Notes: generated from the sequence alone by a model not told the origin. A DNA stretch of 64,000 nucleotides from an uncultured Candidatus Saccharibacteria bacterium (GCA_964350645.1 CAYGJY010000002.1:246431-310430); one strand, 5' to 3'. Shown: positions 2,031 through 22,135, counted from the stretch's first letter. Program-made: numbers and translations.

Positions 2031-4418
2031 TTGAAAATGAAAATGTTTGAATTCAAAGGTATAAATTTTGAGAGCATAAAACTGAGTGTTGGTTCACTTG
2101 TTGGTGTTGGTAAAATTTTTCATAAAGAAGAGCACCAAGACAACCGGAAAATTCAACTAGAGCAAACGTCGCAAACCTACATAGCGAACCAGCTCAACCT
2201 CAGTCTTGAAGGCTTGACCCCAGAACAACAAACTGACCTCATTCAGAGTGCGTTGGGGAAAAAAGAACAGAATGACTCGGAGGTACTCGAGCCTCCAAAA
2301 GCTCAGACAACAGAGCCACTACCTCAACCAACTGAAGAAAGTGGTACTGAAAAATTCCTCAAGCAACGTTTGGAAGACTACAAAAGCAACCCTGAGTTGT
2401 TGCTTGATAGAGGTGCTTTATTGTCTGTATACACCGATCGAGAGAAGATTGGCTTTTCTGAAGAAGAGCTAGTTTTTCTTGTACAGTCTTCTATAAAAAA
2501 CGAGTTTCCCATTTGGTATTGGTCTTTCTACCAACGAGAGAACTTCGAAAGCGTCTCACCTATGTTCAAAAATGCGTATGCACATGAATCACTGAAAATA
2601 CGGTGTGGCGTGATCGAAGCTCTCACAAGTTTTTCTGACACGAGTGATGACATCATTGAATTGTGTGAGTCCGAAAGGAACCCTAAGGTTCTTGGATATG
2701 CAGCATCTGCATTTGCACGCAAAAAAGACTATCCAAGGCTTCAAAGAGTAGTGGCCAATGCACTTACTCGACGTATTGTGCCTGAGTTGACCGAGGAAGG
2801 GCGAGGACTGTTGAATAAGATCAGTATTGACCTTGGTGCGGCGGAACGACGTTTTTTGTGTGAAAAAATTGAGAATGGGTGGACTGAAGAAAAGATTTTG
2901 TCTTTAGGAATTCTTAGTACTTCTGCTGAAGAATCTGATTTGGAAACCCTTGAAAAATTTGTTGGAACATCTCTATTTATACGAGCTGAAGAGCTGGTGC
3001 TTTTGTGCATTGCAAAAATTGGTAAAACAACTAAGGCAGACAAAATTGAAAAAGAACTGCTTGAAACCAACAGGATTGAAACTTTCTATGCAGCACTTGA
3101 TGTTTTGGTGAAAATAAACTACGAGCCACTCTTTGATCAACTGCTTGAATGGCTTGGAAAAGCAGAGCGAATATCAGGAAGATTTTGGGGTGAGGTTGAT
3201 GACAGTAAAATCAAAGATAACATCCAAGACTCCTTGCTAGAGCTATTGAATGAGAAGAACTACAATAAATTTGTCGAGTATATCTTGGACAATTACGATG
3301 CTGACTATCGTGGAAACATCTGGAGCTGGCGTCATTTTTGGGTACTCAGAATGGCTTGTAAAAAGTCGGGGCTTCGCGACTTTATAAAGAAAGAAAAACG
3401 TCTCGTCGATTTTGAAAAATGGGCAGATGTAAAAGCTGAGCTGATTCAGGTGGAGGAAGTAGCGAAAGAAAGCCCCGATCAACTATTTGAAGCCGCAAAA
3501 GTCCAGACTTATAACAATAAACTTTTTATACTACGCAAGCTTTACACCCTGATCACTCCCGAGAAAGCCTTTGAAATGGCAGATCAATTTATTGAGGATC
3601 TACGCATAGACTTGAAACAACGCTTGAAAAAAGTGTCTGAGGAGGATCATCCAGAGGATGTAAAAAAGATCGCTGCAAATGATCTTGATAAATTCTTAGG
3701 TGAAAACCATTTCTTTTACCGCTTACAAAGGAAAAAGAAGAGGGGTAGACGTGCTGAAGATGAGGGCGAGAAAGATGTAGCCTTTGAGCAGCTCAGTGAA
3801 GACATTGATAAGTTCAATTACATTGAGAAAGAGTATCTCACGCACATTTTCAAAAGTGATGATAAGGTTATTCAGAAGAAACTCCTGGTTAGTATCGGGA
3901 GGCCTCATGAGTGCATATATGAGTCTCTGCAAACCTCAACGGGTGAGGTTGGTGCTCTTGAGCGCGCGCTAAATCAAGTCATCGTGTCTGACCCAAACAA
4001 GCTTCTCAAACTGAAGGCGATTGACGCGGCTTTGAGAATAGGAGTGTGTGAGAGAGCAGAATTACATTTGAAGACTCTTGAAATACTTGTGAACTCTAGG
4101 ACAATAGCTAAGGCACCACGAGGTGAAGATTATGATACTTGGTTTACGGGCGAGTTGACTTACGGCTGGGCAGTCAACACATTGAGTAAATTTGGTGATG
4201 TTATTGATTTCCCACTGATAAAAGAAGCTGAGAATCGTGAGAAAGTTATTTCACGCAGTTACCGACACTATGGTAGTTATCAAGATATTAGTGTTTTTGG
4301 TGAATTACTAGATTTGACTGAAATACTCGAAGACCCTGAGGATAAAGGAAACACTTTCTCTACTCTTGAGGATCTTGATTATAGATGGTCGAAAAAGATT
4401 TTGGGCATAGAAGATTGA
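2031..4418 (+). CDS. Large hypothetical protein (795 aa) with HEAT/PBS-lyase-like repeats; AT-rich.
   Basis: Long intact ORF; repeated 'E.NPKV...AA.AL' helical-repeat segments; noticeably lower GC than neighbouring core genes. Confidence 0.5.
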   Translation: MKMKMFEFKGINFESIKLSVGSLVGVGKIFHKEEHQDNRKIQLEQTSQTYIANQLNLSLEGLTPEQQTDLIQSALGKKEQNDSEVLEPPKAQTTEPLPQPTEESGTEKFLKQRLEDYKSNPELLLDRGALLSVYTDREKIGFSEEELVFLVQSSIKNEFPIWYWSFYQRENFESVSPMFKNAYAHESLKIRCGVIEALTSFSDTSDDIIELCESERNPKVLGYAASAFARKKDYPRLQRVVANALTRRIVPELTEEGRGLLNKISIDLGAAERRFLCEKIENGWTEEKILSLGILSTSAEESDLETLEKFVGTSLFIRAEELVLLCIAKIGKTTKADKIEKELLETNRIETFYAALDVLVKINYEPLFDQLLEWLGKAERISGRFWGEVDDSKIKDNIQDSLLELLNEKNYNKFVEYILDNYDADYRGNIWSWRHFWVLRMACKKSGLRDFIKKEKRLVDFEKWADVKAELIQVEEVAKESPDQLFEAAKVQTYNNKLFILRKLYTLITPEKAFEMADQFIEDLRIDLKQRLKKVSEEDHPEDVKKIAANDLDKFLGENHFFYRLQRKKKRGRRAEDEGEKDVAFEQLSEDIDKFNYIEKEYLTHIFKSDDKVIQKKLLVSIGRPHECIYESLQTSTGEVGALERALNQVIVSDPNKLLKLKAIDAALRIGVCERAELHLKTLEILVNSRTIAKAPRGEDYDTWFTGELTYGWAVNTLSKFGDVIDFPLIKEAENREKVISRSYRHYGSYQDISVFGELLDLTEILEDPEDKGNTFSTLEDLDYRWSKKILGIED

Positions 4419-4531
4419 GCCGTTAGCAGCAGAAGAAGCAAGGATAAAACAGCGTTGTGAGTGTGGTGTTTTTAGTGTTTGCTGTACTTTCGAGTTGAAA
4501 AAAATCACCAATTGACTTTTCGGAGTGATAA

Positions 4532-5110
4532 TCAATAAATCTTTTCCTTCTTCTTAAACATTTCGAGGTATTTTTCGGCGCGACGTTGCCGAGTCTCTTC
4601 TTTCTTTGCGCTCCGCAAGTTGTAGACGACTGAGTAGTGGTTGGCTTTGTTGAGGGTTTTGAAAAATGCGTAGGACTCTGGGTCTTTCTTAAGCTTCGTG
4701 ATGAACCAGGTCGGGACGGTCATGTTCTTCGGTGAGTCATACGCCGCGGCGAAGCGGCCGTCTTTCTTGGCTCGCTCGACTTCGGCGAGTCCTGGCGCTT
4801 TCATCTTTTTGTTTTTAATGAGGGTTTCTACGATCTCACGATTGATCTTTGACCAGGTGCTCCGGGGCCGACGCTTGGAGAATTTTATGAAGTAGTACTG
4901 CTCGTTGTGTTTGTTGATGAGTCCGTCGATCCAACCATAGCATAGCGCCACTTCACGCGCTTCTTCGTAGGTAAGGGAAGTAGCTCCGGTGCCTTTCTTG
5001 GCGAACTGAAGCCAGATACTGGCCGGTTGCTCAAAGTTTGACCGTAGCCACTTCGCAAAGTCAGCTTGTTTCTTGAAGTGATGAACGGCCAAGCCTTTGT
5101 GGGATTTCAT
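4532..5110 (-). CDS. YdeI/OmpD-associated family protein (DUF1801/DUF1905-like).
   Basis: 'WLQFAKKG...LTYEEAREVALCYGWIDG' N-terminal signature of the YdeI family plus lysine-rich C-terminus. Confidence 0.55.
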   Translation of the reverse strand: MKSHKGLAVHHFKKQADFAKWLRSNFEQPASIWLQFAKKGTGATSLTYEEAREVALCYGWIDGLINKHNEQYYFIKFSKRRPRSTWSKINREIVETLIKNKKMKAPGLAEVERAKKDGRFAAAYDSPKNMTVPTWFITKLKKDPESYAFFKTLNKANHYSVVYNLRSAKKEETRQRRAEKYLEMFKKKEKIY

Positions 5111-5252
5111 ACAGGTATTGTACCAATCTAGGTGGCTATGTATCTATGTTTATACTTCAAACATTCATCATAAAATTAGTAAAATTTATGTTGAAAACAG
5201 AACGACCACCAGAGGCGGTCGCCTGCAGGTGGTCTTGATGTGGTTTGCGCTC

Positions 5253-5486
5253 TTACCGGCGCTTTACCTTACGCGCTCTTTTGAGCTTTTTCTTCAGCTT
5301 CTTCCGCGCTCCCTCGTCGCCTTTGAGGCCCTCCGCTTCCGTAAGCAGTTCGAGAACCTGGCCCTCCAGATCTTGAAGGTCGCACGCCAGGGCATAGAGG
5401 CCCAGGCCTACCTTGTCAGGAATAGCGTTGATGCGATTCCAGAATTCCTCTGACTTCTCGCCAGAGTAAACCGTCCGGGCTTTCAT
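5253..5486 (-). CDS. Small basic hypothetical protein (77 aa).
   Basis: ORF trimmed to ATG preceded by AGGAGAA SD (revcomp of 5487-5500); lysine/arginine-rich C-terminus; hairpin terminator downstream (5195-5235). Confidence 0.4.
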   Translation of the reverse strand: MKARTVYSGEKSEEFWNRINAIPDKVGLGLYALACDLQDLEGQVLELLTEAEGLKGDEGARKKLKKKLKRARKVKRR

Positions 5487-5664
5487 GTGTTTTCTCCTTG
5501 CCGGTGTTTGTATGGGTCTTATACCACATGAATAATACCTTGTCACTATTAAGGAAAACGGGGTCAGCCACTATTTACTCAATACAAAAATGCAATTCAG
5601 AAATCTTTTAGCTGAAATGGACTGTAAAAACTTCAAGAGCTAATTCTTTTGGTATGATTAACCT

Positions 5665-6090
5665 ATGTCCAAATCTGCACATAAAACAGTGCCACGCAAA
5701 GTGTCGGTGACAGAATATATCAAATCGTTGCCGGCGGCAGAGCAAAAAGATGCCAAAGCATTATTAAAGCTTTTTAAAACGGTTACCACTATGAAGCCCG
5801 TCATGTGGGGAAACATGATTGGCTTTGGTTCCTACCACTACAAATACGACTCAGGCCGGGAAGGAGATTTTTTTGCCACTGGCTTTGCGCTTCGTAAAAG
5901 CGGGCCGACGATTTATATCATGCCTGGGTATCAGGACTACGGTGCGATTCTCAAAGATCTAGGTCCACACAAGTTAGGGAAGTCATGTCTGTATCTCAAG
6001 ACTCTTGATGAAATTGACCTCAAGGTACTGAAGAAATTAATTAAAACTGGCCTCAAAGATTTACGAAAAGTGTATCCGGTGAAGAAATAA
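5665..6090 (+). CDS. DUF1801 (YdhG-like) domain protein.
   Basis: 141 aa ORF with typical DUF1801 layout ('VTEYIKSLP...ALLKLFK...'); carries the shared upstream motif (5612-5639). Confidence 0.55.
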   Translation: MSKSAHKTVPRKVSVTEYIKSLPAAEQKDAKALLKLFKTVTTMKPVMWGNMIGFGSYHYKYDSGREGDFFATGFALRKSGPTIYIMPGYQDYGAILKDLGPHKLGKSCLYLKTLDEIDLKVLKKLIKTGLKDLRKVYPVKK

Positions 6091-6207
6091 AAAACTGACT
6101 CCATTGAGTCGGTTTTTTGTGTGGAGCAATCAGTAGAAATACACAGTGCATGTGAAGTTATAAACAGGTACCTTGCATTGCATAGTACCTTATGATAATA
6201 TTCTGCT

Positions 6208-6582
6208 ATGACTGATTCATCAGCAAAAGAAGAAAATAAATATAATGTCGAGAACGCCCAGTCACAGATGCGCAAAGGATTTCTAGAATTTCCGGTTCTG
6301 CTCATCATTGCAGCGAAGGCGACCTATGCCCCTGATATTCTCAAGCAACTTAAGAAAGCCAACTTGCTTGTAGTCGAGGGCACGCTCTATCCGCTCTTGT
6401 CACGTTTGAAGCGGTTCGCGCTTGTCGAATACGAGTGGCAGGAAAGTAAGAGTGGGCCACCGCGCAAAATGTATTCCATCACTCCCGAAGGGAAGGAGGT
6501 GCTAGCTCAACTTGAAGGGTCGTGGCAGTCGCTCGATGAATCAATGACCATGCTTATTAAGAAATCAGACACTAAGAAGTAA
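6208..6582 (+). CDS. PadR family transcriptional regulator.
   Basis: 'EGTLYPLLSRLKR...E..W.....RKMYSITPEGK' winged-helix PadR signature. Confidence 0.7.
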   Translation: MTDSSAKEENKYNVENAQSQMRKGFLEFPVLLIIAAKATYAPDILKQLKKANLLVVEGTLYPLLSRLKRFALVEYEWQESKSGPPRKMYSITPEGKEVLAQLEGSWQSLDESMTMLIKKSDTKK

Positions 6583-6584
6583 TT

Positions 6585-7814
6585 ATGAAAAAAGTAATCA
6601 ACATCACCCTTGGCAGTATCGTGTTTGCCATCGAGCAAGAAGCCTACGAGATTCTCGCTTCGTACTTAGAGAGTATCAAGCACAACATCGCTGACAACGA
6701 CGATGCGGCTGAAATTGTAGCCGATATCGAACGCGCCATTGCTGAAAAATTCCTCGCTCGTAAGCGAAGTGAAAAGGTGGCGGTAACAAGCGAGGATGTC
6801 TCGGTCGTTACTACAGAGATGGGTAGTCCAGCCGACTTTAGTGAAAGCGATGTGAAGGTAGGAGGTGAGAGCGACCAGGATGAAGCCCAGGCTACAACTC
6901 CACCAGTCGCACCCGAGTCAGAAACAAAAAAGCGACTATACCGCGATACTGATGACGCTATCATTGCGGGTGTAGCCTCTGGTTTGGCACGATACTTTGA
7001 TATTGATCCAGTGATTGTCCGGGTGCTATTCATCGTGGCTGTCTTCTTCAACGGGTTAGGTATATTGGCGTATATCGTTCTTTGGCTCGTCGTACCAGCT
7101 GCTGAAACAACTGCCCAAAAATACGCCATGCGTGGTGAGCGCGTGACTGTCGAGCAAATAACCGAGCGAGTAAAACGGAAAATCGGCGAGGTAGATACCG
7201 ACGCACTCAAAGATGGTGCAAAAAGTACCTGGGGTGGTCTGCGGCCAGTCTTGGTGAAGTTTTTTGAAGTAATCGGAATACTGGTCAAAGCGTCTTTGTC
7301 TGTTCTTAGGTACGTTGTTGGTTTTGCATTTTTGATCGGAGGGGCACTCTCGGTTGCAGGTATGGTGTCGGTATACAGTATTGTCCTGCTTTCAGACCGG
7401 GTGTTGCTCCCAGCAGACGCTCAGGTGGCTGTCGATACCATGCTCAGTAGTGCTCTGGGAATAGTTGCTATCTCAGCTTCGTTTATCATGATGTTCGTTC
7501 CGTTTCTGGTACTGATTTTGGCTGGCGGTAGTATGGTAGCCAAGAGAAACATGTTCACCGTGTCGAAAAGCATCACCTTGGCAGTCGTGTGGATTGTGGC
7601 GGTGGTTCTCGCTGGTACGACGTCAGTGCTGCAGCTAGAAAAAGTCATGTCCATTATAGATCCAGAGGGCTTTGAGCACGGTAGCTATGAGTTACCGATC
7701 GATAGTGATTACGATCCAGCAGAACCTGACACTGCCCCAGTGCCACCAGTAGAACAAGACGTGCCGAGCGCTCCGCCGGCTAGTGACCCGATTGATTTAC
7801 CGGTGGTTCAGTAG
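6585..7814 (+). CDS. PspC-domain membrane protein (stress-responsive), translationally coupled to padR.
   Basis: 'LYRDTDDAIIAGVASGLARYFDIDPVIVRVLFIV' PspC domain followed by several TM segments; ATG 3 nt after padR stop. Confidence 0.7.
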   Translation: MKKVINITLGSIVFAIEQEAYEILASYLESIKHNIADNDDAAEIVADIERAIAEKFLARKRSEKVAVTSEDVSVVTTEMGSPADFSESDVKVGGESDQDEAQATTPPVAPESETKKRLYRDTDDAIIAGVASGLARYFDIDPVIVRVLFIVAVFFNGLGILAYIVLWLVVPAAETTAQKYAMRGERVTVEQITERVKRKIGEVDTDALKDGAKSTWGGLRPVLVKFFEVIGILVKASLSVLRYVVGFAFLIGGALSVAGMVSVYSIVLLSDRVLLPADAQVAVDTMLSSALGIVAISASFIMMFVPFLVLILAGGSMVAKRNMFTVSKSITLAVVWIVAVVLAGTTSVLQLEKVMSIIDPEGFEHGSYELPIDSDYDPAEPDTAPVPPVEQDVPSAPPASDPIDLPVVQ

Positions 7815-7888
7815 GAGAGGTGGGTGCGTTCTATGAAAACACCTGTTGGGTGTTTTTCTCGTATGTGGAGCAGTTTAACTCAAGTTAA

Positions 7889-7949
7889 AACCTCTTTGAT
7901 TGAAATGGAGTGTGCGAACTTTCTGAAGGTAGTTGATCTGTGGTAGATG
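7889..7949 (+). repeat. ~60-nt conserved element, copy A: 'aacctctttgattgaaatggagtgt...gaaggtagttgatctgtggtagatg'.
   Basis: Direct sequence match to copy B at 8988-9048 (first 25 nt identical, remainder ~80% identical) and partial match to 5612-5639. Confidence 0.8.
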
Positions 7950-7995
7950 AAAGCCTTTAGTCTGACTACTTTCAAAGGTATACTGATCAATAACT

Positions 7996-8898
7996 ATGTG
8001 GCTTTTATATACATTCGGGTATGCCTTTGCTCAAGCGCTGGTTCTCTATGTCGATGAATACTTAAGTATCAGTAATGTTGTTACTGAATCTTCTAGTTCT
8101 CATAAACGCATTGGCGCGGTTTTGATCACTTCAGCATTAGTGGGATTTTTAGGTGCACTTGGTGTGTTTCTTTATCTTGGTGATGTAACAGCAACAACAT
8201 ATGTGATGACACTCAGTCTTTTGTCAGCAATACCAATGGTTACTGTATATGCTTCTTACTTTTACCTCTTACTCAACAACCCTTCGTATTTGATTGCACC
8301 GTTTTTCCAGTTCAGCGTAGTCTGGATGTTGCTGTATGAATTAGCACTAGGTGCAACGATTACTTTAGCTGGGTTACTTGGTATTTTCCTTTTGATTTAT
8401 GGAGTGTATATGCTCGATGTTAAATCTTTACGTTGGAAAATTCCAACTCGATTGCTCATGTACATGATACCTGCAAGTCTATTGTGGGCACTCGTAGTAA
8501 TAATGACACAAGCTGCCACACAAGAGGCTTCCGCGCAGGTTGTTGTCTTTTATCAAATGCTGGGCACTGGTTTTGTTGGTCTTGCGCTTCTCTTGTTCGT
8601 AAAACCGTATCGTGAGGGGCTGGTGTTCCGAATGAAAAACCAAGGCAAGAGCTTTATTGCTGCAAGCGTGGTGAACGAACTTTTTTGGCAAATCAGTCTT
8701 TTATTTGCAGTATTGGCAATTGCTTCGGCACCACTCGTTGCTTACTTTGGTGCTGCTGGTGGTGTACACAACCTTATAGTACTTGGACTATTCTTCCTCT
8801 TTCCTCTGCACGAACGTAATAAAATCACTTGGGTGCAAGTATTGGCGATAGCATTGATTATCTTTGGTATTTTTAGTATCGAATTTTGGCGAGTATAG
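7996..8898 (+). CDS. Polytopic membrane protein, function unknown (300 aa).
   Basis: Highly hydrophobic intact ORF, ~9-10 predicted TM segments. Confidence 0.5.
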   Translation: MWLLYTFGYAFAQALVLYVDEYLSISNVVTESSSSHKRIGAVLITSALVGFLGALGVFLYLGDVTATTYVMTLSLLSAIPMVTVYASYFYLLLNNPSYLIAPFFQFSVVWMLLYELALGATITLAGLLGIFLLIYGVYMLDVKSLRWKIPTRLLMYMIPASLLWALVVIMTQAATQEASAQVVVFYQMLGTGFVGLALLLFVKPYREGLVFRMKNQGKSFIAASVVNELFWQISLLFAVLAIASAPLVAYFGAAGGVHNLIVLGLFFLFPLHERNKITWVQVLAIALIIFGIFSIEFWRV

Positions 8899-8941
8899 GT
8901 AAAAGTAAAGAAGCTTACTCTCTCGAGCAAACTTCCATATT

Positions 8942-8970
8942 CTTCTATATATTTCCATGTTTGGTGGAAG
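8942..8970 (+). repeat. Imperfect direct repeat of the ssrA (tmRNA) 3' end plus flank; att-like.
   Basis: 'cttctatatatttccatgtttggtggaag' matches 10007-10035 'cttctagatatttccatgtctggtggaga' at 26/29 positions; the latter is the tmRNA 3' terminus (revcomp UCUCCACCA). Confidence 0.6.
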
Positions 8971-8987
8971 ACTTTGTACCAAGTAAG

Positions 8988-9048
8988 AACCTCTTTGATT
9001 GAAATGGAGTGTCCTAATTTCCTTAAGGTTGTTGAGTTGTGGTAAATT
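8988..9048 (+). repeat. ~60-nt conserved element, copy B (upstream of SRPBCC gene).
   Basis: See copy A; contains plausible sigma70-like -35/-10 (tttcct-N19-taaatt). Confidence 0.8.
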
Positions 9049-9055
9049 TAAATAT

Positions 9056-9496
9056 ATGCAAAAAATGCACTTTTCAATCACAATAGACGCACCAAAGGAA
9101 AAAGTGTGGGACACCATGCTTGAAGACGCTACTTATAGAGAGTGGACTAAAATATTTGAGCCGGGATCTCACTATGAAGGAAGCTGGGAAGAAGGTTCAG
9201 AAATAAAATTTTTCTCAGCAGACGAAAAAATGGTTATGTACAGCCGTATTAAAGAGAATCGTCTTCATGAATATGTTTCTATCGAACATATCGGAATAAT
9301 AAAAGATGGTGTTCTCGATACTACCAGTGACGAAGTTAAAAAATGGGCTCCGTCATACGAAAACTACACTTTTACCACCACCGATAATGGTACTGAACTA
9401 TCAGTTGATATAGACATAAATGATGAGTACAAAACTTCGTTTGAAGAAATGTGGCCCAAAGCGCTTGAGGTTTTGAAAGCCTTAGTAGAAAAATAG
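9056..9496 (+). CDS. SRPBCC-fold protein (AHSA1/activator-of-Hsp90-ATPase-like).
   Basis: 'HFSITIDAPKEKVWDTMLEDATYREWT' START/Bet-v1-like N-terminus; start trimmed to ATG 9056. Confidence 0.6.
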   Translation: MQKMHFSITIDAPKEKVWDTMLEDATYREWTKIFEPGSHYEGSWEEGSEIKFFSADEKMVMYSRIKENRLHEYVSIEHIGIIKDGVLDTTSDEVKKWAPSYENYTFTTTDNGTELSVDIDINDEYKTSFEEMWPKALEVLKALVEK

Positions 9497-9520
9497 CACA
9501 GTTTCTCTTCAATTTAATAC

Positions 9521-9973
9521 ATGATAGAAATTAAAAAAATAACTCTAGAGGATAATTTCGACGAAATAGTTGATGCTATTAAGAATTCTTCTTGGGCTGA
9601 GAAGTCAGAAATTGATCCAAGTGACTATTCCTTCGAACATATCGAAGAATCACTGAGACAAGACGATCATCTTTTTTGCATTGCCTACCATGATGGTCAG
9701 TTCGGTGGTATGGCCTCAGCGTTTGCTCTCACGAAGCCTGATGGAGACAAGTGGTTATATGTTAATGAAGTTGATGTACCAATAGAGAAGCAAAGGAGAG
9801 GTGTTGGTACTGAGTTGATGAAGTTTCTGAAAGCAGAGGGAAAAAGACTTGGGTGTATAGAGATGTGGCTTGGTACTGAAAAGGACAATACTGCCGCGAA
9901 TGCACTCTACAATTCTTTAGAACCAACAGAGGTAGAAGAATTTGTTGGTTACACATACAAATTCAAGTTATAG
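9521..9973 (+). CDS. GNAT acetyltransferase, aminoglycoside 6'-N-acetyltransferase (AAC(6')-I)-like.
   Basis: GNAT motif A 'QRRGVGTELM' and C-terminal 'GCIEMWLGTEKDNTAANALYNSL' resembling AAC(6')-I family 'GCREMASDTSPENT...'. Stem-loop terminator 9981-10004. Confidence 0.55.
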   Translation: MIEIKKITLEDNFDEIVDAIKNSSWAEKSEIDPSDYSFEHIEESLRQDDHLFCIAYHDGQFGGMASAFALTKPDGDKWLYVNEVDVPIEKQRRGVGTELMKFLKAEGKRLGCIEMWLGTEKDNTAANALYNSLEPTEVEEFVGYTYKFKL

Positions 9974-10027
9974 ACAAGAAAACCGCCTCAAAGGCGGTTT
10001 TCTATTCTTCTAGATATTTCCATGTCT

Positions 10028-10419
10028 GGTGGAGATGGGGGTATTGAAACCCCGTCCGAATTAATCTGCCGTTGTGCGTCTACAGTGTGTAGTCGTTTCT
10101 TTGATTTAAAGTAGTGGCCTAAAGAAAAGACAAAACAATCACTACTCGAGTTGCTGCATCTTGGGCACTTGGCACAACCGACCAAGTTTCCACAGTCTGA
10201 TGTTTATTCCACCCGTACTACCTTACCAGACATGGGGTAGACGAGCGTCGTACCGGCGAGCGAGTGGTTACGCTACAGCGGGTGCGAATCCGAACGCGTT
10301 AGCGTACGGACTTGGTACAGATTTGTTTGCATCTATACGTAGCCGCCTTTTAACGAATGGCGGCCAATTTCGACACTGCACACAATGACAACAACTAACC
10401 GTCGATGCCTAGCATCCCC
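10028..10419 (-). ncRNA. ssrA: tmRNA (ssrA), ~392 nt.
   Basis: Minus-strand 5' GGGGAUGCUAGGCAUCGAC and 3' ...GGACGGGGUUUCAAUACCCCCAUCUCCACCA (tRNA-like end, acceptor pairs with 5' end); internal tag ORF GCA AAC AAA ... GCU GUA GCG UAA = ANKSVPSPYANAFGFAPAVA*; smpB adjacent. Confidence 0.75.
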
Positions 10420-10547
10420 TGCAAAGACGCGGAGCGTCTTTGCAGTTGAGTGTTATACGTAATCAAAATACTGATGACGCTTCTACTCACTGAAGTCCAA
10501 TGCGGTATGCTATCGGAACTCCATATCCTTGCAGGGGAGTATGTACA

Positions 10548-10997
10548 TTAGTTTTGACTTTTCAAAATACGATCGATGTCTCGTTTATTGTCGCGAGCCT
10601 TAAGCGCTTCACGCTTGTCGGCTTTCTTCTTACCACGACCAATACCAATTTCGAGCTTCAACTTTCGGCCCGCATTATACAATCGAATTGGCACTATTGT
10701 CAAACCAGCTTGCTCACTTTTTTCTTCGAGCTCCTTCAGTTCTTTTTTTGATAAAAGCAGCTTACGAACCCTTTCTGGCTCATAGTCTTTCGGCATGTTG
10801 GCTGGTTGATAGGGAGCAACCGAGCTGTTTACTAAGAAAGCCTCACTGCCGCGAATAAGAACGTGGGCTCCGTCGAGCTTCGCTCGGCCGGTTTTGATGG
10901 ATTTTACCTCATAGCCAGCCAGTACTAAACCCGCCTCGAAGGTGTCGAGGATCTCATAATCAAAGCGGGCCTTTTTGTTACTGATGAGGTTACTCAT
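10548..10997 (-). CDS. smpB: SsrA-binding protein SmpB.
   Basis: 'KKARFDYEIL...EAGLVLAGYEVKSIK' canonical SmpB N-terminus, 149 aa. Confidence 0.9.
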   Translation of the reverse strand: MSNLISNKKARFDYEILDTFEAGLVLAGYEVKSIKTGRAKLDGAHVLIRGSEAFLVNSSVAPYQPANMPKDYEPERVRKLLLSKKELKELEEKSEQAGLTIVPIRLYNAGRKLKLEIGIGRGKKKADKREALKARDNKRDIDRILKSQN

Positions 10998-11091
10998 GTG
11001 TCCATACTATAGTCGCTTCGAATCGTCTAAGCAAATAGGTTAGTGGTATTTCACTCGCAAAATAAAGGTATTTCTGTATAATGGCGCGACT

Positions 11092-13158
11092 ATGGATGAT
11101 AATAAAAAAACACCAGTACCAGAGAACAGTGCCGATATGCCGGAGACAGCAAAAGATTCGGCAGCGATGAAAGAATCAACTGAGAAGAAAAAACCTGATC
11201 AAAAATCGAAAGGACCAAAAATGCCAAATTTAAAAGGAAAGATGCCGGTTGGGCCGGGAAATTTTTGGAATAATATTCTCTCGACCGTGCTTTTCTTGGT
11301 GATGCTTACCGCTGTCTATACGTATGTGACTGAAAATAAAACCGTACCGGAAGAGCTCTCCGTTTCACAAATCGCTGAACAAGTAAAAGCGGGTGAGGTG
11401 AGTGAGATTATTGTCCGGGGTTCGCAACTTGAGGTGAATTACACTGATGAGACACGCAATAGTGGTGAAGCTAAAAAAGAGACCGATTCGTCAATTACTG
11501 AGACGCTGATAAATCTTGGAGTGACGACTGAACAGATTTCAACAATTACACTTGATGTTCAGAATCCGACTGGTTTCTCATATTGGTTGAGTAATCTTGC
11601 CCCGTTTATTTTTCCGTTGCTATTTTTAGGAATTATCATTTGGTTCTTCACCCGTTCAGTAAAAGGAGCTGGCATGCAGGCGTTAAACTTCGGCACTAGC
11701 AAAGCTCGGATGATTGACCCGGATGACACAGCCAACAAAGTTACCTTTAAAGATGTTGCTGGCGCCAAAGAAGCGAAGCAAGAGCTCGAAGAGATTGTGG
11801 ATTTCTTAAAGAATCCAAAGAAGTTTCTCGACATTGGAGCGGAGATCCCGAAGGGTGTGATGATGATGGGTTCGCCAGGAACCGGAAAGACACTACTCGC
11901 TCGGGCAGTCGCCGGAGAAGCCGGTGTGCCATTTTTCTCAATCTCTGGTTCAGAGTTTGTTGAGATGTTTGTGGGGGTTGGTGCGAGCCGGGTACGTGAT
12001 CTATTTCAGATGGCGAAGAAAGCTGCACCAGCGATCATCTTTGTTGATGAAATTGATGCGGTGGGACGAATCCGTGGTACTGGAATTGGTGGTGGTAATG
12101 ACGAACGAGAACAAACCCTTAACCAGATCTTGGTGGAAATGGACGGCTTTGAACCAAATGCAAAGGTAATTGTGATGGCAGCGACCAACCGACCAGACGT
12201 ACTTGATCCAGCGTTGCTTCGACCAGGTCGCTTCGACCGACGAGTCACTATTGATCTACCGGACCGTGATGATCGGGAAAAAATTCTTGAAGTACATGCC
12301 CGCAAGAAGCCACTACAGGAAGATGTGAACTTAGGAATTGTGGCTCAGCGTACACCAGGTTTTTCTGGGGCTGATTTGCAGTCACTCATGAACGAAGGAG
12401 CGATTTTAGCAGCCCGCGAAGGCCGCAAGAAGGTAGGGCAGTTTGATTTGATTCGCTCAATCGAGAAAGTGATGCTTGGTCCAGAGCGAAAGAGTCATGT
12501 GTTGTCGCGCAAAGAACGGGAAGTGACTGCCTATCATGAAGTCGGACACGCCCTGGTTGCTTCGGTATTGCCCTACGCTGACCCGGTCCAGAAAATCTCA
12601 ATCATTTCTCGGGGACGCGCTGCTGGGTATACCCTAAAGTTGCCAGACGAAGATCGTCGAATGCACACCAAGAAAGAATTTATTGATGATATTGCGATGA
12701 CACTTGGTGGGTATGTTACAGAAGAAATGGTGTTTGGTGATCTTACAACCGGCCCAAGCAACGACCTCCAAGTCGTTGCTAACCTCGCTCGGGATATGGT
12801 TACGAAGTATGGTATGAGTGAACTTGGTCCAATTGCACTTGAAGGTACGGGCGGTCGTATGATCGGTGGTGGCGTCAGTGAAGATCGTGGCTATAGTCCA
12901 CAGATTGCTAAAGCGATTGATGATGAGGTTGCAAAGTTGATTGAGGCTGGTAAGCAAACTGCTCGTGAGATTCTTGAAAAACACCGCACAGCTTTGGATT
13001 CAATTTCTAAGAAACTGGTTGAAGTGGAGACACTTGAACGAGAAGAATATGAAGCTTTACTGAAAGCTGAAGGCGTCGTGATTAAAGATTTTTACCGCGA
13101 TGAGCGAGAGAAAGAAGCAGCATTAGTAGGTGATTTGTCTAAATCAGTCGAAGTATAA
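11092..13158 (+). CDS. ftsH: ATP-dependent zinc metalloprotease FtsH.
   Basis: AAA Walker A 'GSPGTGKT', SRH region, zinc-binding 'HEVGHAL'; TM anchor near N-terminus. Terminator 13169-13196. Confidence 0.95.
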
Positions 13159-13210
13159 ATGCACACAAAAAGCCGGCGCGTAGCGCCGGCTTTTTGTGTA
13201 TTCACAAGGA

Positions 13211-13912
13211 CTAGGTGGACTGTACTTTGATATTGGTAATGAGGCCGTCTTCCATTTCAATAATTCGATCACACCCAACGGCGTATTCAGGTTCGTGGGT
13301 TACCATGACAACCGTCTGGCCAGACTCTTTATGTAGTTTTGTGATTAGGTCGATCACTTGCTGACCGGAGACACTGTCGAGGTTGGCGGTCGGTTCATCA
13401 GCAAAGAGAATCTTTGGTTTACCCGCAATCGCTCGCGCCACTGATACTCGTTGTTGCTCGCCACCAGAAAGCTCTCCTGGTAGATTTTTATATTTACCAA
13501 CTAAGCCAACTGAGTCGAGTGACGTGTCAGCAATTTTTTCAGCTTTTTCCCAGTCAATACCACGCATCAGAAGGGGCACCATGATATTCTCGCGAGCATT
13601 GAGGTCAGGCACAAGAGCATAATCTTGGAAGACATACCCAAGGGTATTAAGTCGAAAGGTGGTTCGTTCAGTTTCCGAGAGGTCACTCACGGTCACACCG
13701 TCGATAACCAAGGTGCCTTCGGTTGGAACATCGAGGACAGAGAGTTGATACATGAGGGTTGATTTACCAGCACCAGATTTACCCATGATAGCGATAAATT
13801 CACCTGCAGCGACCTCAAGATCGATACCTTTAAGAATGTGCGACTCAAGATTACCTGTGCCAAATGTTCGGTGAATGTTGTGTGCTGAAATCATCATACT
13901 ATTTGCGACCAA
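13211..13912 (-). CDS. ABC transporter ATP-binding protein (MacB/LolD-like).
   Basis: Walker A 'GKSGAGKST', signature 'LSGGEQQR', Walker B 'ILFADEPT'. Confidence 0.9.
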   Translation of the reverse strand: MVANSMMISAHNIHRTFGTGNLESHILKGIDLEVAAGEFIAIMGKSGAGKSTLMYQLSVLDVPTEGTLVIDGVTVSDLSETERTTFRLNTLGYVFQDYALVPDLNARENIMVPLLMRGIDWEKAEKIADTSLDSVGLVGKYKNLPGELSGGEQQRVSVARAIAGKPKILFADEPTANLDSVSGQQVIDLITKLHKESGQTVVMVTHEPEYAVGCDRIIEMEDGLITNIKVQST

Positions 13913-15146
13913 GGATTGAGTTAAGGGTATTTTGCCGGGCGATCATCCATGCTGGCATAAAGCCAGCAATCAGCGTGATAATAAAAAGGACGATAAATCG
14001 ATAGAAAGTACCCTCAGGATCAGCCACTAGAATGCCGTCACTAAAAGGGAACTGAATTGGGTTGTTATCGAAGTAGGGGATTAAAACCATATACGTAATA
14101 ATTGTACCTATGAGTGAACCACTCAGAGCGTAAAATGCTGCTTGGATTACATAGGCGTACTCGATTGCTCGGCGCTCGATTCCGATACCCTTGAGAATAC
14201 CAATATGTCGTCGTCGGGAAAGGGCATTGATAAAGATAATAATAAAAATAGTAATTGACGCCACCACAATACCAATTGAGCCAATAAATGTTCCTAAGAT
14301 ATTGAAGGTATTTTTAATATCCGTAATAAATTTTGGTTTACCCTCGTCGTAGGTCTGAATTTTAGCTAATTCGCCAAGGCCCCCAGCGACCATAGCTTCC
14401 TTGACGGCAGTTTCGTTAGCGTTTGGCGTGGTGCGAATGACAATTTGATCGGCGTTTCGGTCGATGCGATTAAACAAACGACGAAACTCTCGCTCAGGGA
14501 TATAGGTGTTGAGGGATACTTCGTCAACTTTAGATTGCACAATGCCTTTAATAATAAATTCTTTACTAACGGTACCTGAAGTGAGTCGAACGGTGTCGCC
14601 AACAGCGACACCGCTAATAGTCTCAAAGATGTCACCAAAGTTTTGGGCATATTCTTCAGTGTAGAGTGCACCGAGTAAGATGTACCCCTCTTCTGTTGGG
14701 TCGAGGTACTCACCGGCAATAACACTCTGAGACAGCCCACTCATGGCGTCTTCTTTCTCTGCATCAATACCAGTTACAGATACATTAGCAATGTCTCGAT
14801 CAGCCGACAGATCGCGCCGTTCCTTGTAATTGGCTTCGAGGATGCCTCCATCTGAGAAGCGTACTGAATAGGTGGCGATTTCAGGGAAAGCAGCTAGTTC
14901 ACGGACGAAGGTTTCAGTTTCGAGGATGGTATCTTCACCATCGAGTTCACTGACAATAATATCGCCAAGTGATTCGGCGCGCACTGCTCGCTCAGCTCCT
15001 TCAATTAAGCCAACCAAAATACCTGAGACGGCAATCAGATTAAGAAAGGTAAGCATCATCACAAAGATGATGAGAATGGTTGTCCAAATACTAGCGCGCT
15101 GAATTTGGCGCAGTCCCAAAAGAATACCAATGCGGAGCGAACGCAT
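13899..15146 (-). CDS. ABC transporter permease, FtsX/MacB-like with large periplasmic domain.
   Basis: N-terminal TM, long extracytoplasmic domain, C-terminal 3-TM FtsX-like bundle; overlaps ATPase gene by 14 nt. Confidence 0.8.
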   Translation of the reverse strand: MRSLRIGILLGLRQIQRASIWTTILIIFVMMLTFLNLIAVSGILVGLIEGAERAVRAESLGDIIVSELDGEDTILETETFVRELAAFPEIATYSVRFSDGGILEANYKERRDLSADRDIANVSVTGIDAEKEDAMSGLSQSVIAGEYLDPTEEGYILLGALYTEEYAQNFGDIFETISGVAVGDTVRLTSGTVSKEFIIKGIVQSKVDEVSLNTYIPEREFRRLFNRIDRNADQIVIRTTPNANETAVKEAMVAGGLGELAKIQTYDEGKPKFITDIKNTFNILGTFIGSIGIVVASITIFIIIFINALSRRRHIGILKGIGIERRAIEYAYVIQAAFYALSGSLIGTIITYMVLIPYFDNNPIQFPFSDGILVADPEGTFYRFIVLFIITLIAGFMPAWMIARQNTLNSILGRK

Positions 15147-15147
15147 G

Positions 15148-16737
15148 TTACGGAGCGACTATTGTGTCGCCTTCAGTTACACCAGTAATTTCGACAAAAC
15201 CATCATTGCCTGTGAAGATAACTTCGATTGGGACAGGTATTACAGAGTCGCTGTTAGCCTGTGGTATTAAGACACTGGCTCCGGCTTCTGTTTTAATCAA
15301 GAAGCGTTTTGGAATCCGCAACACGTCTTCAGAGCGCTCAGCGATAATGTTGATGTCTGCGTTCAGTCCTGAGCGCATCCAGGTTGGCGTGTCATCGAGC
15401 ACGATAGTAGCTTTGAAATAGGCGACACCGTCAATCTCGGTTGCGAGTGGTGAAATAAAACTTACTCGTCCTGATAGGACAGTATTGCTGGCAGCGTCAA
15501 AGATAACTTCAACTGGTTGGTCAGGAATAATCTTGGTTATATCTATTTCGGGAATACGAGCAGTGAGTTCAAAGCTGTTATTGGCAAGGAGGGTAATCAC
15601 TGGGTTAGCACCAGCTGTCTCTCCAGGTAAAATATCAACATCAGTGATTACGCCACTAAAAGGCGCAACGATAGAACGATCAGCTATTCGGGCATCGATG
15701 GCTTGGATCCGAGCACGCGCTTGGGTAACAGCGGCGTTTTTTCGGGCGAGTTCTTCACTGCGTGGGTCAGCGTTGCTTAAGCTAGCTTCTTCTTTAGCCA
15801 GGGCAAGAGAATTTTCGGCTGCTCTGATCGCCTCTTGCTGTTCAATAACTGCTAATGTGTAAGCGTTGAGGTTTGTTTGGTAGACAGCGCTTTGTTTGTT
15901 GGGGATATCAATCAGCCATACCGAGTCTCGGTAGAGTGTGTCTGGGTCAAACTGTAAAAATAAACCGCACGTCCCCATGGCGCCTGGGCTTTGGAAAAAA
16001 GCTCTGTAGTTGCCACTTTCTAAACCAGTGACACGATAAGAAAAATCGGTGAACGTGTCAGCATTATACGTAGTTATTTGATACGTGCCCTCAGTATCAC
16101 AGGTATAGGTACCTGACACGGTCGGGGCGGTGGCGGTTTCGTCTGATTCTTTAGCTCTGGAAATGAGACTTGAAGAAAGCAGAGTACGCTTGGCGTTCTC
16201 GACACGCTCGTTTGTTTCGTTGGTAATTTTGCTTAGATTTTGTTCAGCGTTACGGATGGTTTGGGTAGTAACCGCGCGGGCTTCTGCCCGTGGCCCGGCA
16301 ATCAATTCCGCTTGGTCTGCCTCGGCAGTTTGGAGAGCAGCTAAGGCATCGAGACGTTCAGCAACAAGCTCTGCTGACGCGAGGGTTGCTAACACAGCAC
16401 CACTTTCAACACTGGCACCTTCTTCAGCAAAGACTGTAGTGACGATACCTGAGACGGGGAAGGCTAGTTTGGCTGTTTGTTTCGCCTCCACCACTCCTGA
16501 GACTGAGACAATTTCGAGGACGTCGCCGCGTTCAACAAATGTAGTAACCCGTTCAACTTTTTGCCCGCTCAGAGTGGTGAAGAGTAAGGTAAGGGCAAAC
16601 CCAACCAAGATGACAGCACCAAAGATATAAAAGGAATTTGAATGAAGGATCAATCGCATCTCACCTAGTATAGCAATATCACACAGTCTCTTAGCGCTTA
16701 CCTGGTAATAAGGTATACTCGAAAGTATATGATCCAT
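15148..16737 (-). CDS. HlyD/MacA-family periplasmic adaptor (efflux/secretion). Start uncertain; M27 at 16659 is an alternative.
   Basis: Signal-anchor then coiled-coil rich region and beta-barrel/lipoyl-like C-terminus typical of membrane-fusion proteins; operon with ABC ATPase and permease. Confidence 0.75.
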   Translation of the reverse strand: MDHILSSIPYYQVSAKRLCDIAILGEMRLILHSNSFYIFGAVILVGFALTLLFTTLSGQKVERVTTFVERGDVLEIVSVSGVVEAKQTAKLAFPVSGIVTTVFAEEGASVESGAVLATLASAELVAERLDALAALQTAEADQAELIAGPRAEARAVTTQTIRNAEQNLSKITNETNERVENAKRTLLSSSLISRAKESDETATAPTVSGTYTCDTEGTYQITTYNADTFTDFSYRVTGLESGNYRAFFQSPGAMGTCGLFLQFDPDTLYRDSVWLIDIPNKQSAVYQTNLNAYTLAVIEQQEAIRAAENSLALAKEEASLSNADPRSEELARKNAAVTQARARIQAIDARIADRSIVAPFSGVITDVDILPGETAGANPVITLLANNSFELTARIPEIDITKIIPDQPVEVIFDAASNTVLSGRVSFISPLATEIDGVAYFKATIVLDDTPTWMRSGLNADINIIAERSEDVLRIPKRFLIKTEAGASVLIPQANSDSVIPVPIEVIFTGNDGFVEITGVTEGDTIVAP

Positions 16738-17793
16738 GAACCATTCTATGATCCAACCAAATCGTATTATGAGAATTATGAGGCTGGGCCGTTCGGGGCT
16801 TTTAGAGATGGCAAGTTCATTGAGCGGTCGTCACCACCGCGTGAATTTTTTCTTGGTCAACCGGTCTACACCAAGTTTGGTATTCCGGCTGGGCCGCTTC
16901 TCAATAGTAACTATGTCATAGCGGCTTTAGATAAAGGCTTTGATTTACCGATTTATAAGACAGTTCGTTCTGGCGTTCATGGCTGTCATGAGTATCCCAA
17001 TGTTCTGCCAGTTGATGTGACTGATGACCTCACACTTGAAAAAGCTGATGCTGGTTTGGTGACTAAGGAAGGGTACACTGAGCCTCTTTCGATCACGAAC
17101 TCGTTTGGTGTGCCGTCGTTTGATCCAGATGCTTGGCAGCCAGATGTCGAGAAGGCAGTAGAATATGCTAAAGACGGGCAGATAGTCGGACTTAGTTTCC
17201 AAGGAACAAAACAGGACGGTATGAGCGCTGAAGCATTTATCGCTGATTGGGTAACGACTGCTAAGTTGGCCGCTGCAACTGGCGCCCCGTACTTGGAGGC
17301 AAACTTCAGTTGTCCAAACGAAGGTACGACGGCACTCTTATGTTTTGATGTTGAGCGAGTGGGAAAGATTTCACGCGCAATTAAAGAAGCGATTGGAGAT
17401 GTACCGCTGCTGTTAAAGATTTCATATTTTCGCGAGCAAGAGCAACTTGAATCGCTAGTGAATGAAGTAGGCAAGGTAGTGCAGGGATTTTCGACAATTA
17501 ATACTATTTCGGCTGAAGTGCGCACCCCGGGAGGTGAACAGGCATTACCTGGAGAAGGGCGTTTACGTAGTGGTGTATGTGGCACCACAATCAAGTGGGC
17601 TGGCCTTGAAATGGTTGAACGGTTTGTTGCCTTGCGTGCGCTGCAGGGACTTGATTTTGTAGTTGTCGGTGTTGGTGGGGTGACTCAAGCAGAAGAGTAT
17701 ACAGAATATATTGAGGTAGGTGCTGACGCAGTGATGTCAGCAACCGGTGCAATGTGGAATCCCTTCCTTGGTGAAGAAGTCTATAAAGCCTAG
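16729..17793 (+). CDS. pyrD: Dihydroorotate dehydrogenase-like (PyrD family, class 1).
   Basis: 'FGIPAGPLLNS', 'NSFGVPSF', 'EANFSCPNEG', 'LLLKISYF' TIM-barrel DHOD motifs; upstream of pyrB-pyrC. N-terminal ~50 aa extension, so start may be overcalled. Confidence 0.7.
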   Translation: MIHEPFYDPTKSYYENYEAGPFGAFRDGKFIERSSPPREFFLGQPVYTKFGIPAGPLLNSNYVIAALDKGFDLPIYKTVRSGVHGCHEYPNVLPVDVTDDLTLEKADAGLVTKEGYTEPLSITNSFGVPSFDPDAWQPDVEKAVEYAKDGQIVGLSFQGTKQDGMSAEAFIADWVTTAKLAAATGAPYLEANFSCPNEGTTALLCFDVERVGKISRAIKEAIGDVPLLLKISYFREQEQLESLVNEVGKVVQGFSTINTISAEVRTPGGEQALPGEGRLRSGVCGTTIKWAGLEMVERFVALRALQGLDFVVVGVGGVTQAEEYTEYIEVGADAVMSATGAMWNPFLGEEVYKA

Positions 17794-17841
17794 TGCCTTG
17801 ACGCTCCCTTGGGGTAGTGTAGGATGGCATGAATTTGAGTC

Positions 17842-18849: not shown

Positions 18850-18854
18850 ATACT

Positions 18855-20147: not shown

Positions 20148-20523
20148 ACTTTCTATTTTTTTTGAGTTAGGTTGAGATATCGGCTCGCACAGAGAAGGGA
20201 GATGACGCTGATGGATCACCATCCGAATCCTGTCCACGTGTTTGTGTACATGGACATGGAGCCCGGAAGAAAATCGGGCAGTCCTGTGAACAGATTGACC
20301 GGAGTAGGCTACTCGATTCGGCGTGCTCATGGAAAAGTTCCACACGCTGTGGCAATCTGTTCTGATCGGTCTACTGTTCGTGAGGTCGCAGAAGGGATGA
20401 TCATGGCTGATGTCAACTCTATTGTTGGCGCTGCCCGTGTGTCTGTGACCTTTCAGCAGGTCCGCTGAAGAAAATCGCCCCGCCCTGGAATGAGCCCGGG
20501 CGGGAGAGGGGAGAGATAGATAG

Positions 20524-22121: not shown

Positions 22122-22135
22122 CTAGTTTCAGTAAT

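Follow-up and report, generated by a model that had tools for sequence, protein, structure and literature searches.

A repeat termed D1, which lies beside the transfer-messenger RNA (tmRNA) gene ssrA of an uncultured Candidatus Saccharibacteria bacterium, likely marks the boundaries of small gene cassettes arranged in an array, with a site-specific recombinase for them encoded elsewhere in the genome. The repeat was analysed in a stretch of 64,000 nucleotides (nt) of this organism's DNA (GCA_964350645.1 CAYGJY010000002.1:246431-310430), hereafter called the window, and in related loci. A cassette consists of a short core, a D1 copy of ~85 nt, one or two cargo genes, and a right end that becomes the new trailer and terminator of ssrA. 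Direct support comes from the anatomy of the cassettes, from exchanges between strains at the cores, from the linkage of the arrays to ssrA, from the polarity with which D1 copies decay, and from coding constraint on a short open reading frame (ORF) within D1.

Cassette arrays at the 3' end of ssrA

A degenerate pattern for the peptide-coding region of D1 was run against species-representative genomes, and a second pattern, anchored outside the ORF, against metagenome contigs. The first matched 22 species-representative genomes, and all 22 are metagenome-assembled genomes of Patescibacteria (the Candidate Phyla Radiation, CPR), labelled Saccharibacteria, Paceibacteria, Kaiserbacteria, Nomurabacteria or Minisyncoccia. 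The second matched 64 metagenome contigs. Viral contigs gave no match to the peptide-region pattern, and phage and plasmid records gave none to D1 or to the junction that contains it. With the D1 profile, 159 copies are detected at 87 loci, 86 of them non-redundant. Arrays hold up to six copies, which are never of mixed orientation. The D1-to-D1 period ranges from 389 to 2794 nt (median 836), and 65 of the 72 complete units carry either one gene (43 units) or two (22 units).

The gene ssrA directly follows the last D1, always in convergent orientation, in 27 of 37 informative loci, and no other arrangement was seen; 49 further loci are too short to be informative. Beyond the array, the gene order continues from tmRNA to smpB and then ftsH. 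ARAGORN overlooked tmRNA genes at L025:6831-7224 and L078:4665-5057, to which the Rfam model assigns 97 and 81 bits, so counts based on ARAGORN alone understate the linkage. Some D1 copies (at loci L047, L087, L089 and L034) have no tmRNA gene within several kilobases. Loci L047 and L087 belong to the same 1.03-Mb contig (Ga0209864_1000001), which places D1 at two separate loci of one genome, and at L089 a convergent tRNA-Gln gene lies ~500 nt from D1, without the GTGGAG core described below. Such copies possibly represent secondary docking sites or rearrangements.

Decay within the arrays is polar. Among arrays with at least three copies, the lowest profile score belongs to the copy farthest from ssrA in 13 of 16 (29% expected, p=2e-5), which fits insertion beside ssrA followed by ageing outward.

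Strain variants were located by looking up the identical SmpB protein on contigs from sister samples, and this protein was found on contigs that differ in cassette content. One contig (L003) has the same arrangement as the window. Another (L002) is ~95-96% identical to the window on both flanks (5697-7944 and 9979-20162), and, in place of the window's two cassettes (EamA; SRPBCC plus GNAT), it has one D1+HigBA cassette between PspC and tmRNA, with window positions 7945-9978 being replaced. This unit comprises TGCGGAG and a D1 copy, a HigA/HigB pair on the other strand, and a right end that abuts the tmRNA gene. In another pair of loci, L088 and L051, flanks that are 99.8% identical enclose a single swapped segment, which consists of two cassettes (3247 nt) in L088 and an unrelated 861-nt unit in L051. 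The swap extends exactly from core to core, its left bound being the end of GGTGGA(G/C)AT and its right bound the start of AGTGGAGATGG; this places the point of exchange in the 5-8-nt GTGGAG core. Homology of 5-8 nt is too little for RecA.

In other samples of the same study, assemblies break exactly at cassette junctions, so that each cassette forms its own contig of ~1.1 kb (L001, equivalent to window 7884-8957, and L095, equivalent to 8931-10082), and contig L004 ends just past smpB. The EamA cassette is a separate contig of 1074 nt in another sample's assembly. Such breaks fit a population in which the neighbours of each cassette vary.

Differences between the window and L002 are also found outside the array. 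A mosaic breakpoint lies inside the DUF1801 gene (window 5697-5860, L002:13760-13930): the 3' two-thirds of the gene are near-identical, and the 5' third and everything upstream differ. The upstream region contains a 795-amino acid (aa) ORF, an OmdA-family gene and a small ORF in the window (2031-5546), versus response-regulator, SET, PfkB and AdoHcyase genes in L002. Thus, the variable region reaches left beyond the cassette array.

The cargo is typical of accessory genes, with toxin-antitoxin pairs, transporters, acetyltransferases and small metabolic enzymes, and includes HigB/HigA, MazEF, GNAT, EamA, DUF305, DoxX, NUDIX and DUF1801 proteins, as well as a dihydroorotate dehydrogenase, a PurK-like enzyme, a peptidase and an MscS channel. 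In the 72 cassettes, 49 cargo genes have the same orientation as D1 and 55 the opposite one, so D1 cannot act as a promoter for cargo in general. Terminators, and apparently a promoter as well, come with each cassette.

Repeat and junction anatomy in the window

The sequence-only reading of this region had described a ~60-nt element with an identical 25-nt core at two positions and a weaker third copy at 5612. The core (AACCTCTTTGATTGAAATGGAGTGT) does occur exactly at 7889 and 8988 and nowhere else in the window, and it is absent from 100 shuffled sequences. The repeat around it exists and is larger than proposed, with 84 nt at 7865-7948 (copy A) and 8964-9047 (copy B) that are 79% identical according to a repeat finder. 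In searches with the D1 profile (nhmmer), copy A has E=2e-24. The third copy (copy C) is indeed the third-ranked match in the window, on the same strand and ahead of a next match at E=6.3, and it is marginal (9.6 bits, E=0.047 over the 64-kb window). The window has no copy other than A, B and C. Copy C is plausibly an old, decayed remnant of D1: decay is, as a rule, greatest at the end of an array away from ssrA, and the weak score of copy C agrees with its position there. A further repeat, D3, had escaped the sequence-only reading. It spans 31 nt (8938-8968 and 10003-10033, 94% identical), and the copy at 10003-10033 corresponds to the final 7 nt of the tmRNA gene and the first 24 nt of its trailer. 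From left to right, the features of the array are as follows.

5595..5643, plus strand: copy C, a decayed D1 before the DUF1801 gene (nhmmer, D1 profile), without counterpart in L002
5617..5643, plus strand: micro-ORF remnant of copy C, MDCKNFKS, from ATG 5617 to TAA 5643
6120..6128, plus strand: TGTGGAGCA, a core-like 9-mer just past the DUF1801 terminator
7836..7863, no strand assigned: PspC terminator hairpin and ctcgta, the left flank of the array, common to L002 up to the core, with identity falling after it
7864..7870, plus strand: junction core TGTGGAG, complementary to the CTCCACA with which tmRNA ends, at the distal end of cassette A
7865..7948, plus strand: D1 copy A (repeat family D1, nhmmer), with a conserved non-coding part at 7865-7904 and the micro-ORF at 7905-7946 (MECANFLKVVDLW, stop TAG)
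7996..8898, plus strand: cargo of cassette A, an EamA-like membrane transporter of 300 aa (Pfam EamA, E=3.2e-5)
8899..8963, no strand assigned: right end of cassette A, R1 type (D3 repeat, terminator scan), with a terminator hairpin on the minus strand, that of the tmRNA, at 8909-8936, followed by an AT-rich trailer
8951..8971: junction of cassette A, with ATTTCCA (8951-8957), spacer TGTTTGG (8958-8964) and the opposed TGGAAGA (8965-8971)
8964..9047, plus strand: D1 copy B, with the micro-ORF at 9004-9045 (MECPNFLKVVELW, stop TAA)
9056..9973, plus strand: cargo of cassette B, SRPBCC/AHSA1-like (9056-9496) and GNAT acetyltransferase (9521-9973) genes (Pfam)
9974..10026, no strand assigned: right end of cassette B, the current ssrA trailer, with a bidirectional terminator (9977-10003) and the second D3 copy
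10016..10036: junction of cassette B, with ATTTCCA (10016-10022), spacer TGTCTGG (10023-10029) and the opposed TGGAGAT (10030-10036)
10027..10419, minus strand: ssrA (tmRNA), the docking site (ARAGORN; Rfam RF00023, 110.6 bits), its last nucleotides ATCTCCACCA being the core
10548..10997, minus strand: smpB (Pfam SmpB), the conserved neighbour beyond ssrA and the anchor for strain variants

Copies A and B thus flank one cassette, that of EamA, as had been noted earlier, and the start codons do lie where the original reading placed them relative to the copies. In copy A the D1 ORF stops at 7946, 49 nt before the EamA ATG, and that of copy B at 9045, 10 nt before the SRPBCC ATG. At the junction between cassettes A and B, the window reads TGGTGGA before copy B. 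The 9-mer TGTGGAGCA occurs twice in the window (at 6120 and at the start of copy A; 0.63 occurrences are expected by chance). The occurrence at 6120 may be a fourth, nearly erased junction ahead of the PadR and PspC genes, and is suggestive only.

Every junction has the short core GTGGAG(AT), at which neighbouring units join and which is complementary to the final nucleotides of tmRNA. The right end, core and D1 form a junction of ~150 nt that is kept as one unit across loci, with up to 89.5% identity over 143 nt and 75-90% identity between cassettes. When homologous cassettes occur in different contexts, their alignment starts at the core. For example, the D1 and SRPBCC gene of the window align with locus L019 as a unit, from 8964 through the SRPBCC stop. 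Transfer of this cassette between classes was considered and rejected; its identity to the L019 cassette (76.7%) equals that of ftsH (76.2%), and vertical descent may account for it. Between the window and L008, D1 is 88-91% identical, versus 70.5% for tmRNA and 67% for smpB.

Read on the tmRNA strand, the common right end (R1) presents a trailer and then a terminator, so a newly inserted cassette gives ssrA a fresh 3' flank. R1-type junctions have the form ATTTCCA-N7-TGGA(A/G)AT, and complementarity of the arms is enriched at a spacing of 7 bp only. To judge from its sequence, this arrangement is the layout of a predicted tyrosine-recombinase core site. The tmRNA body at the docking site and D1 in every junction take up equivalent positions, and D1 is therefore most likely a putative recombinase-binding arm. 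As single-stranded DNA, the 156-nt junction folds no better than shuffled sequences (z = -1.43 and -0.20). Among 60 copies of D1, neither a consensus RNA structure nor covariation was detected (-1.4 kcal/mol), and in a search of the region against Rfam, tmRNA was the sole match, with D1 and the junction fitting no family. The possibility that D1 is a displaced or degenerate tmRNA 3' end was rejected: it shares ATTGAAA and the core with that end, but the D1 profile misses real tmRNA ends. The likeness is kept as a positional analogy only.

Other junction types were also observed. A second kind of right end (L032:1306-1420; also in L010, L011, L017, L035, L044 and L031, beside tmRNA genes) is an inverted pseudo-copy of the tmRNA 3' end. 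It consists of the T-loop, the 3' strand of the T-stem, an inserted covarying hairpin and then CATCTCCACCA, and it opposes the real tmRNA end over a bidirectional terminator; the two make up perfect palindromes, the core included, with lengths of up to ~23 bp. In a "long" variant of D1 (L008, L015, L026, L037, L044, L072 and others), an insertion of ~54-57 nt, running from GACCTAG to GGAAATGCCCTGGTGGTG, is placed between the core region and AAAACCTC and terminates in the core-like TGGTGGTG, which suggests that part of the junction was duplicated. Within the arrays of L088 (reverse strand, 4708-4920) and L051 (3423-3630) is a fragment that begins AGTGGAGATGGCGG(T/G)AGTTG. Oriented directly with respect to ssrA, it follows the tmRNA 3' end for ~19 nt, as far as the T-loop, beyond which the similarity is lost. 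This fragment looks like a displaced ssrA end from a different type of integration, with crossover at the T-loop. The tmRNA itself differs between the window and L002 by a compensatory pair in the T-stem (10039/10052; GGGGG/CCCCC versus GGCGG/CCGCC), and its 3' end has an encoded CCA in one strain (CCACCA) and lacks it in the other (CCACA).

Two further observations concern gene expression. No Shine-Dalgarno sequence is found before the PadR, DUF1801, EamA and SRPBCC starts (6190-6207, 5647-5664, 7981-7995 and 9040-9055, respectively), and the -10-like boxes GATAAT, TATGAT, TATACT and TAAATT lie 6-12 nt before them. This suggests that mRNAs of this organism are leaderless or have very short leaders; genes of the window seem mostly to be leaderless, with such boxes 6-8 nt ahead of the ATG. 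Bacteria normally read AUA by means of a lysidine-modified CAU tRNA, and a tRNA-Ile(UAU) is unusual; a tRNA-Ile with anticodon TAT (UAU) is predicted at window 22049-22122 and at L076:10419-10493.

A micro-ORF at the end of D1

D1 terminates in a 13-codon ORF that reads MEC(A/P)NFLK(V/I)VDLW before its stop. The differences between copies A and B in this ORF are mostly synonymous, and when the L002 copy is included, the final 39 nt still differ almost only synonymously, with the stops TAG, TAA and TGA at the same position. Codon statistics were calculated for metagenome copies found with the anchor outside the ORF, which leaves the ORF part free. The entropies of the three codon positions are 0.52/0.22/0.96. 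Synonymous changes account for 58% of codon differences from the consensus, versus 17% expected and 4-32% in the other five frames. The first Leu position is filled by each of the six Leu codons but never by TTY, whereas ~7.7 TTY codons would be expected if the two positions varied independently. A stop codon (TGA, TAA or TAG) is found at the same position in 42 of 52 copies, and conservation ends exactly there. Only the last ~13 codons carry a coding signal, and none is seen in the part of D1 between the core and KTSLI, its 5' half, which serves as an internal control. These statistics are a clear indication that the micro-ORF is under selection at the amino-acid level.

Several other explanations for the conserved sequence were rejected. 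A longer ORF of at least 27 aa, starting from an ATG at the core or in the right end, is contradicted by the non-coding 5' half of D1 and by frames that are broken in several copies. An antisense ORF is disfavoured by synonymous changes that reach at most 30% in all three antisense frames. Differences between copies are not adenine-specific, as those in the repeat of a diversity-generating retroelement would be. Neither Pfam nor NCBIfam gave a match to the junction or D1 peptide at E<=10, and a search of 5.8 billion protein clusters with the junction peptide gave just two matches, both to short predicted proteins (56 and 46 aa). These two matches likewise led to rejection of D1 as the C terminus of a gene split by integration, as for integrases of the Sulfolobus spindle-shaped virus (SSV) type.

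Cargo genes on the opposite strand, from at least 15 unrelated families, end 0-6 nt past the micro-ORF stop. The ORF is intact to the same degree for either direction of the cargo (57% and 58%) and so is not for cargo expression. It may instead be translated in the service of the cassette, for example as a cis-acting or arrest-type peptide or as a small accessory to recombination. Selection on the C-terminal dozen residues and the stop resembles, by analogy only, that on regulatory nascent peptides. We know of few precedents for a conserved, selected micro-ORF inside a recombination site.

Recombination, rival explanations and known systems

From these observations we infer a recombinase, a circular intermediate and a role for the peptide. 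In the mechanism that we propose, the right end, core and D1 of a circular cassette would be joined into an attP-like site of ~150 nt, which would recombine with the core at the ssrA 3' end. Catalysis would fall to a site-specific recombinase, probably of the tyrosine type, whose gene would lie elsewhere in the genome; this enzyme is hypothetical because no recombinase gene was found near the arrays. Each newcomer would land beside ssrA and push older cassettes outward, and the D1 copies of the outward cassettes would decay, as copy C may illustrate. More tentatively, the arrays can be viewed as an integron-like, tmRNA-anchored platform for gene capture in Patescibacteria, with a ~150-nt site whose translated 13-residue peptide acts in, or regulates, recombination or maintenance; we regard this fuller proposal as possible.

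Several observations weigh against this interpretation. No recombinase gene was found in the 64-kb window, the cargo or the fetched loci (~0.55 Mb). A phmmer search of six-frame ORFs of the window and all loci with an E. coli XerD probe returned nothing at E<=10, and Pfam scans of cargo and neighbouring genes revealed no recombinase. None was found in long cassettes or in the 3.5-4.7-kb tmRNA-proximal gaps of L008 and L032, and ORF clustering yielded no recurrent large family besides SmpB, FtsH and an ABC transporter. The inverted arms spaced by 7 bp are confined to R1-type junctions and are lacking in the other types of right end. The swapped unit of L051 has no D1, so D1 is perhaps not strictly needed. 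No circular intermediate or empty site was observed, and ssrA is absent from 10 loci despite room of at least 3 kb. With respect to the micro-ORF, some otherwise intact copies have ATA, AGG or AAA instead of the start ATG, and neither a Shine-Dalgarno sequence nor a promoter is evident for it.

The main rival explanation, which we consider unlikely, dispenses with a dedicated recombinase. DNA from relatives would be exchanged by RecA, with the junctions serving as portable homology, as in the "minimal mobile elements" of competent bacteria. Saccharibacteria can be naturally competent. The missing recombinase is as this explanation would have it, junctions of ~150 nt with 75-90% identity could support homologous crossovers, and strain genomes are mosaic elsewhere too, as at the breakpoint inside the DUF1801 gene. 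However, the swap between L088 and L051 is bounded by the 5-8-nt core on both sides, the flanking right ends are unrelated and one partner lacks D1. Exchange by RecA also leaves unexplained the single orientation of the copies, the anchoring at the ssrA 3' end, the polarity of decay and the arms spaced by 7 bp. Alternatively, the mobile unit could be the ~150-nt junction alone, as a selfish repeat similar to a miniature inverted-repeat transposable element (MITE) or as a small-protein gene, with the genes in between being residents. In favour of this view, conservation of the junction far exceeds that of the genes on either side of it and of the host backbone, and the junction has its own selected micro-ORF. 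Yet whole units of D1 and cargo differ between near-identical strains, D1 and the SRPBCC gene move together with homology that begins at the core, and the copies have one orientation and one type of locus, beside ssrA, with no other in the 64-kb window. We therefore regard a mobile junction as very unlikely.

The sequence-only reading had itself offered two explanations, one of which was a shared operator or promoter that defines a small stress regulon under the neighbouring PadR regulator. This assignment has become highly improbable and, on sequence comparisons, appears largely refuted. All three copies in the window do lie upstream of genes on the same strand, and the last bases of copy B (TGGTAAATT) could be an extended -10 box for a leaderless SRPBCC mRNA. 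However, cargo genes are oriented either way (49/55), with many opposite-strand genes ending 0-6 nt from D1, and a PadR gene is near D1 in only ~4 of 86 loci. The -35/-10 pair once proposed within the repeat was not recovered: a scan for the sigma-70 consensus with 16-18 nt spacing found no promoter-like site inside 7865-7948 or 8964-9047, and the -10 box of the EamA gene is its own and lies outside D1. PadR operators are usually palindromic, and D1 is not. The motif is also missing before the DUF1801 gene of L002, which is directly preceded by a response-regulator gene, with no copy C. The other explanation, that the repeats are att-like boundaries of tandem cassettes downstream of ssrA, has held up through the strain swaps at cores, the arrays of up to six copies and the convergent linkage to ssrA. 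A true integron, or a cluster of attC sites lacking integrase (CALIN), operated by an IntI-type enzyme would likewise account for small cassettes, most of them with a single gene and many with toxin-antitoxin cargo, that stand in an array of newest-first polarity. We give this possibility almost no credence, because every testable defining feature of integrons is absent. The array head is ssrA-smpB-ftsH, with no integrase, so that docking occurs at ssrA rather than at attI and intI is lacking. No attC-like imperfect palindrome (R''-L''...L'-R', with RYYYAAC/GTTRRRY) that could fold is found, conservation being in sequence and not in structure, and the cassettes are not the co-oriented, promoterless units of integrons.

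If the likely reading is correct, that is, an ssrA-anchored array of cassettes moved by a recombinase in trans, such arrays would offer a general route to flexibility of accessory genes in CPR bacteria. These organisms are obligate episymbionts whose tiny genomes contain few recognisable mobile elements, and to our knowledge the routes by which they acquire and shuffle accessory genes are largely unknown. D1 would provide a simple sequence tag for mining accessory genes and strain variation in metagenomes, cassette arrays would explain assembly breaks just downstream of ssrA, and genetic tools for Saccharibacteria could make use of the array site as a natural landing pad. Keyword searches limited to openly accessible papers found no published description of ssrA-anchored cassette arrays.

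Several known systems share parts of this organization. Modules bounded by pdif (Xer) sites in Acinetobacter, and integrative mobile elements exploiting Xer (IMEX), depend on a host recombinase in trans, and the modules hold 1-3 genes, are rich in toxin-antitoxin systems and have short core sites. They resemble the cassettes in being small and bounded by short cores. However, pdif sites are 28-bp dif-like sequences (11-6-11) that alternate in orientation and reside on plasmids, whereas the sites described here are chromosomal direct repeats of ~150 nt that are tied to ssrA, with 7-bp arms and a 7-bp spacer in the R1 type only, and no dif-like 11-6-11 sequence was recognised. Very short ORFs are found in recombination sites or leaders in the form of ORF-11 in the integron site attI1 and arrest peptides such as TnaC. 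Similarly, the D1 micro-ORF is very short, lies beside a recombination site and shows selection on its C-terminal ~12 residues and stop position. Unlike these examples, it is independent of the orientation of the downstream gene, so coupling to cargo translation is not its general role.

Cis-mobilizable elements (CIMEs), known from integrative and conjugative elements (ICEs) of Streptococcus, are non-autonomous, att-flanked elements without an integrase that occur in tandem with related elements and are presumably mobilised in trans. The cassettes also have att-like sites on both sides, lack recombination genes, stand in tandem, vary in content between close strains and are presumed to be mobilised in trans. 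An ICE that resides at the same site gives rise to CIMEs by decay, whereas none of the 86 loci here showed a parent element, and throughout a whole superphylum the cassettes are found in long, regular arrays. Integrons and CALINs also have long arrays of small, mostly one-gene cassettes with one recombination site each, insertion at one end, gene ends packed against the site, and cargos of toxin-antitoxin systems and genes with unknown function. They differ in that attC is conserved in its folded structure, whereas the junction described here is conserved in sequence without a significant fold, and in that the present cassettes have randomly oriented cargo, their own terminators and apparently promoter, and a docking site at ssrA.

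Of the known systems, tDNA-targeted islands and tycheposons come closest to the cassettes, and CIME-type elements are also near. The islands identified by Islander and TIGER and the tycheposons of Prochlorococcus dock at the 3' ends of tRNA or tmRNA genes (tDNAs), restore the downstream part of the gene, and are flanked by short direct repeats of the tDNA end. In tycheposons, arrivals at the tDNA push older elements outward, where remnants decay (bioRxiv 10.1101/2020.12.28.424599). The same features are found here, with docking at the ssrA 3' end in 27 of 37 loci, a trailer and terminator supplied by cassette B, and direct repeats in the form of the 31-nt D3 repeat and the GTGGAG core, although the ssrA portion of these is unusually short. 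Those islands and tycheposons are kilobases long, encode their own tyrosine recombinase and often have genes for replication or packaging. In contrast, the units described here have a median length of 0.84 kb, carry one or two genes and no recombinase, duplicate only ~7 nt of the tmRNA gene, and possess a conserved ~150-nt junction with a selected micro-ORF. The arrays are thus a variant of tDNA-targeted integrative elements that is integron-like in architecture.

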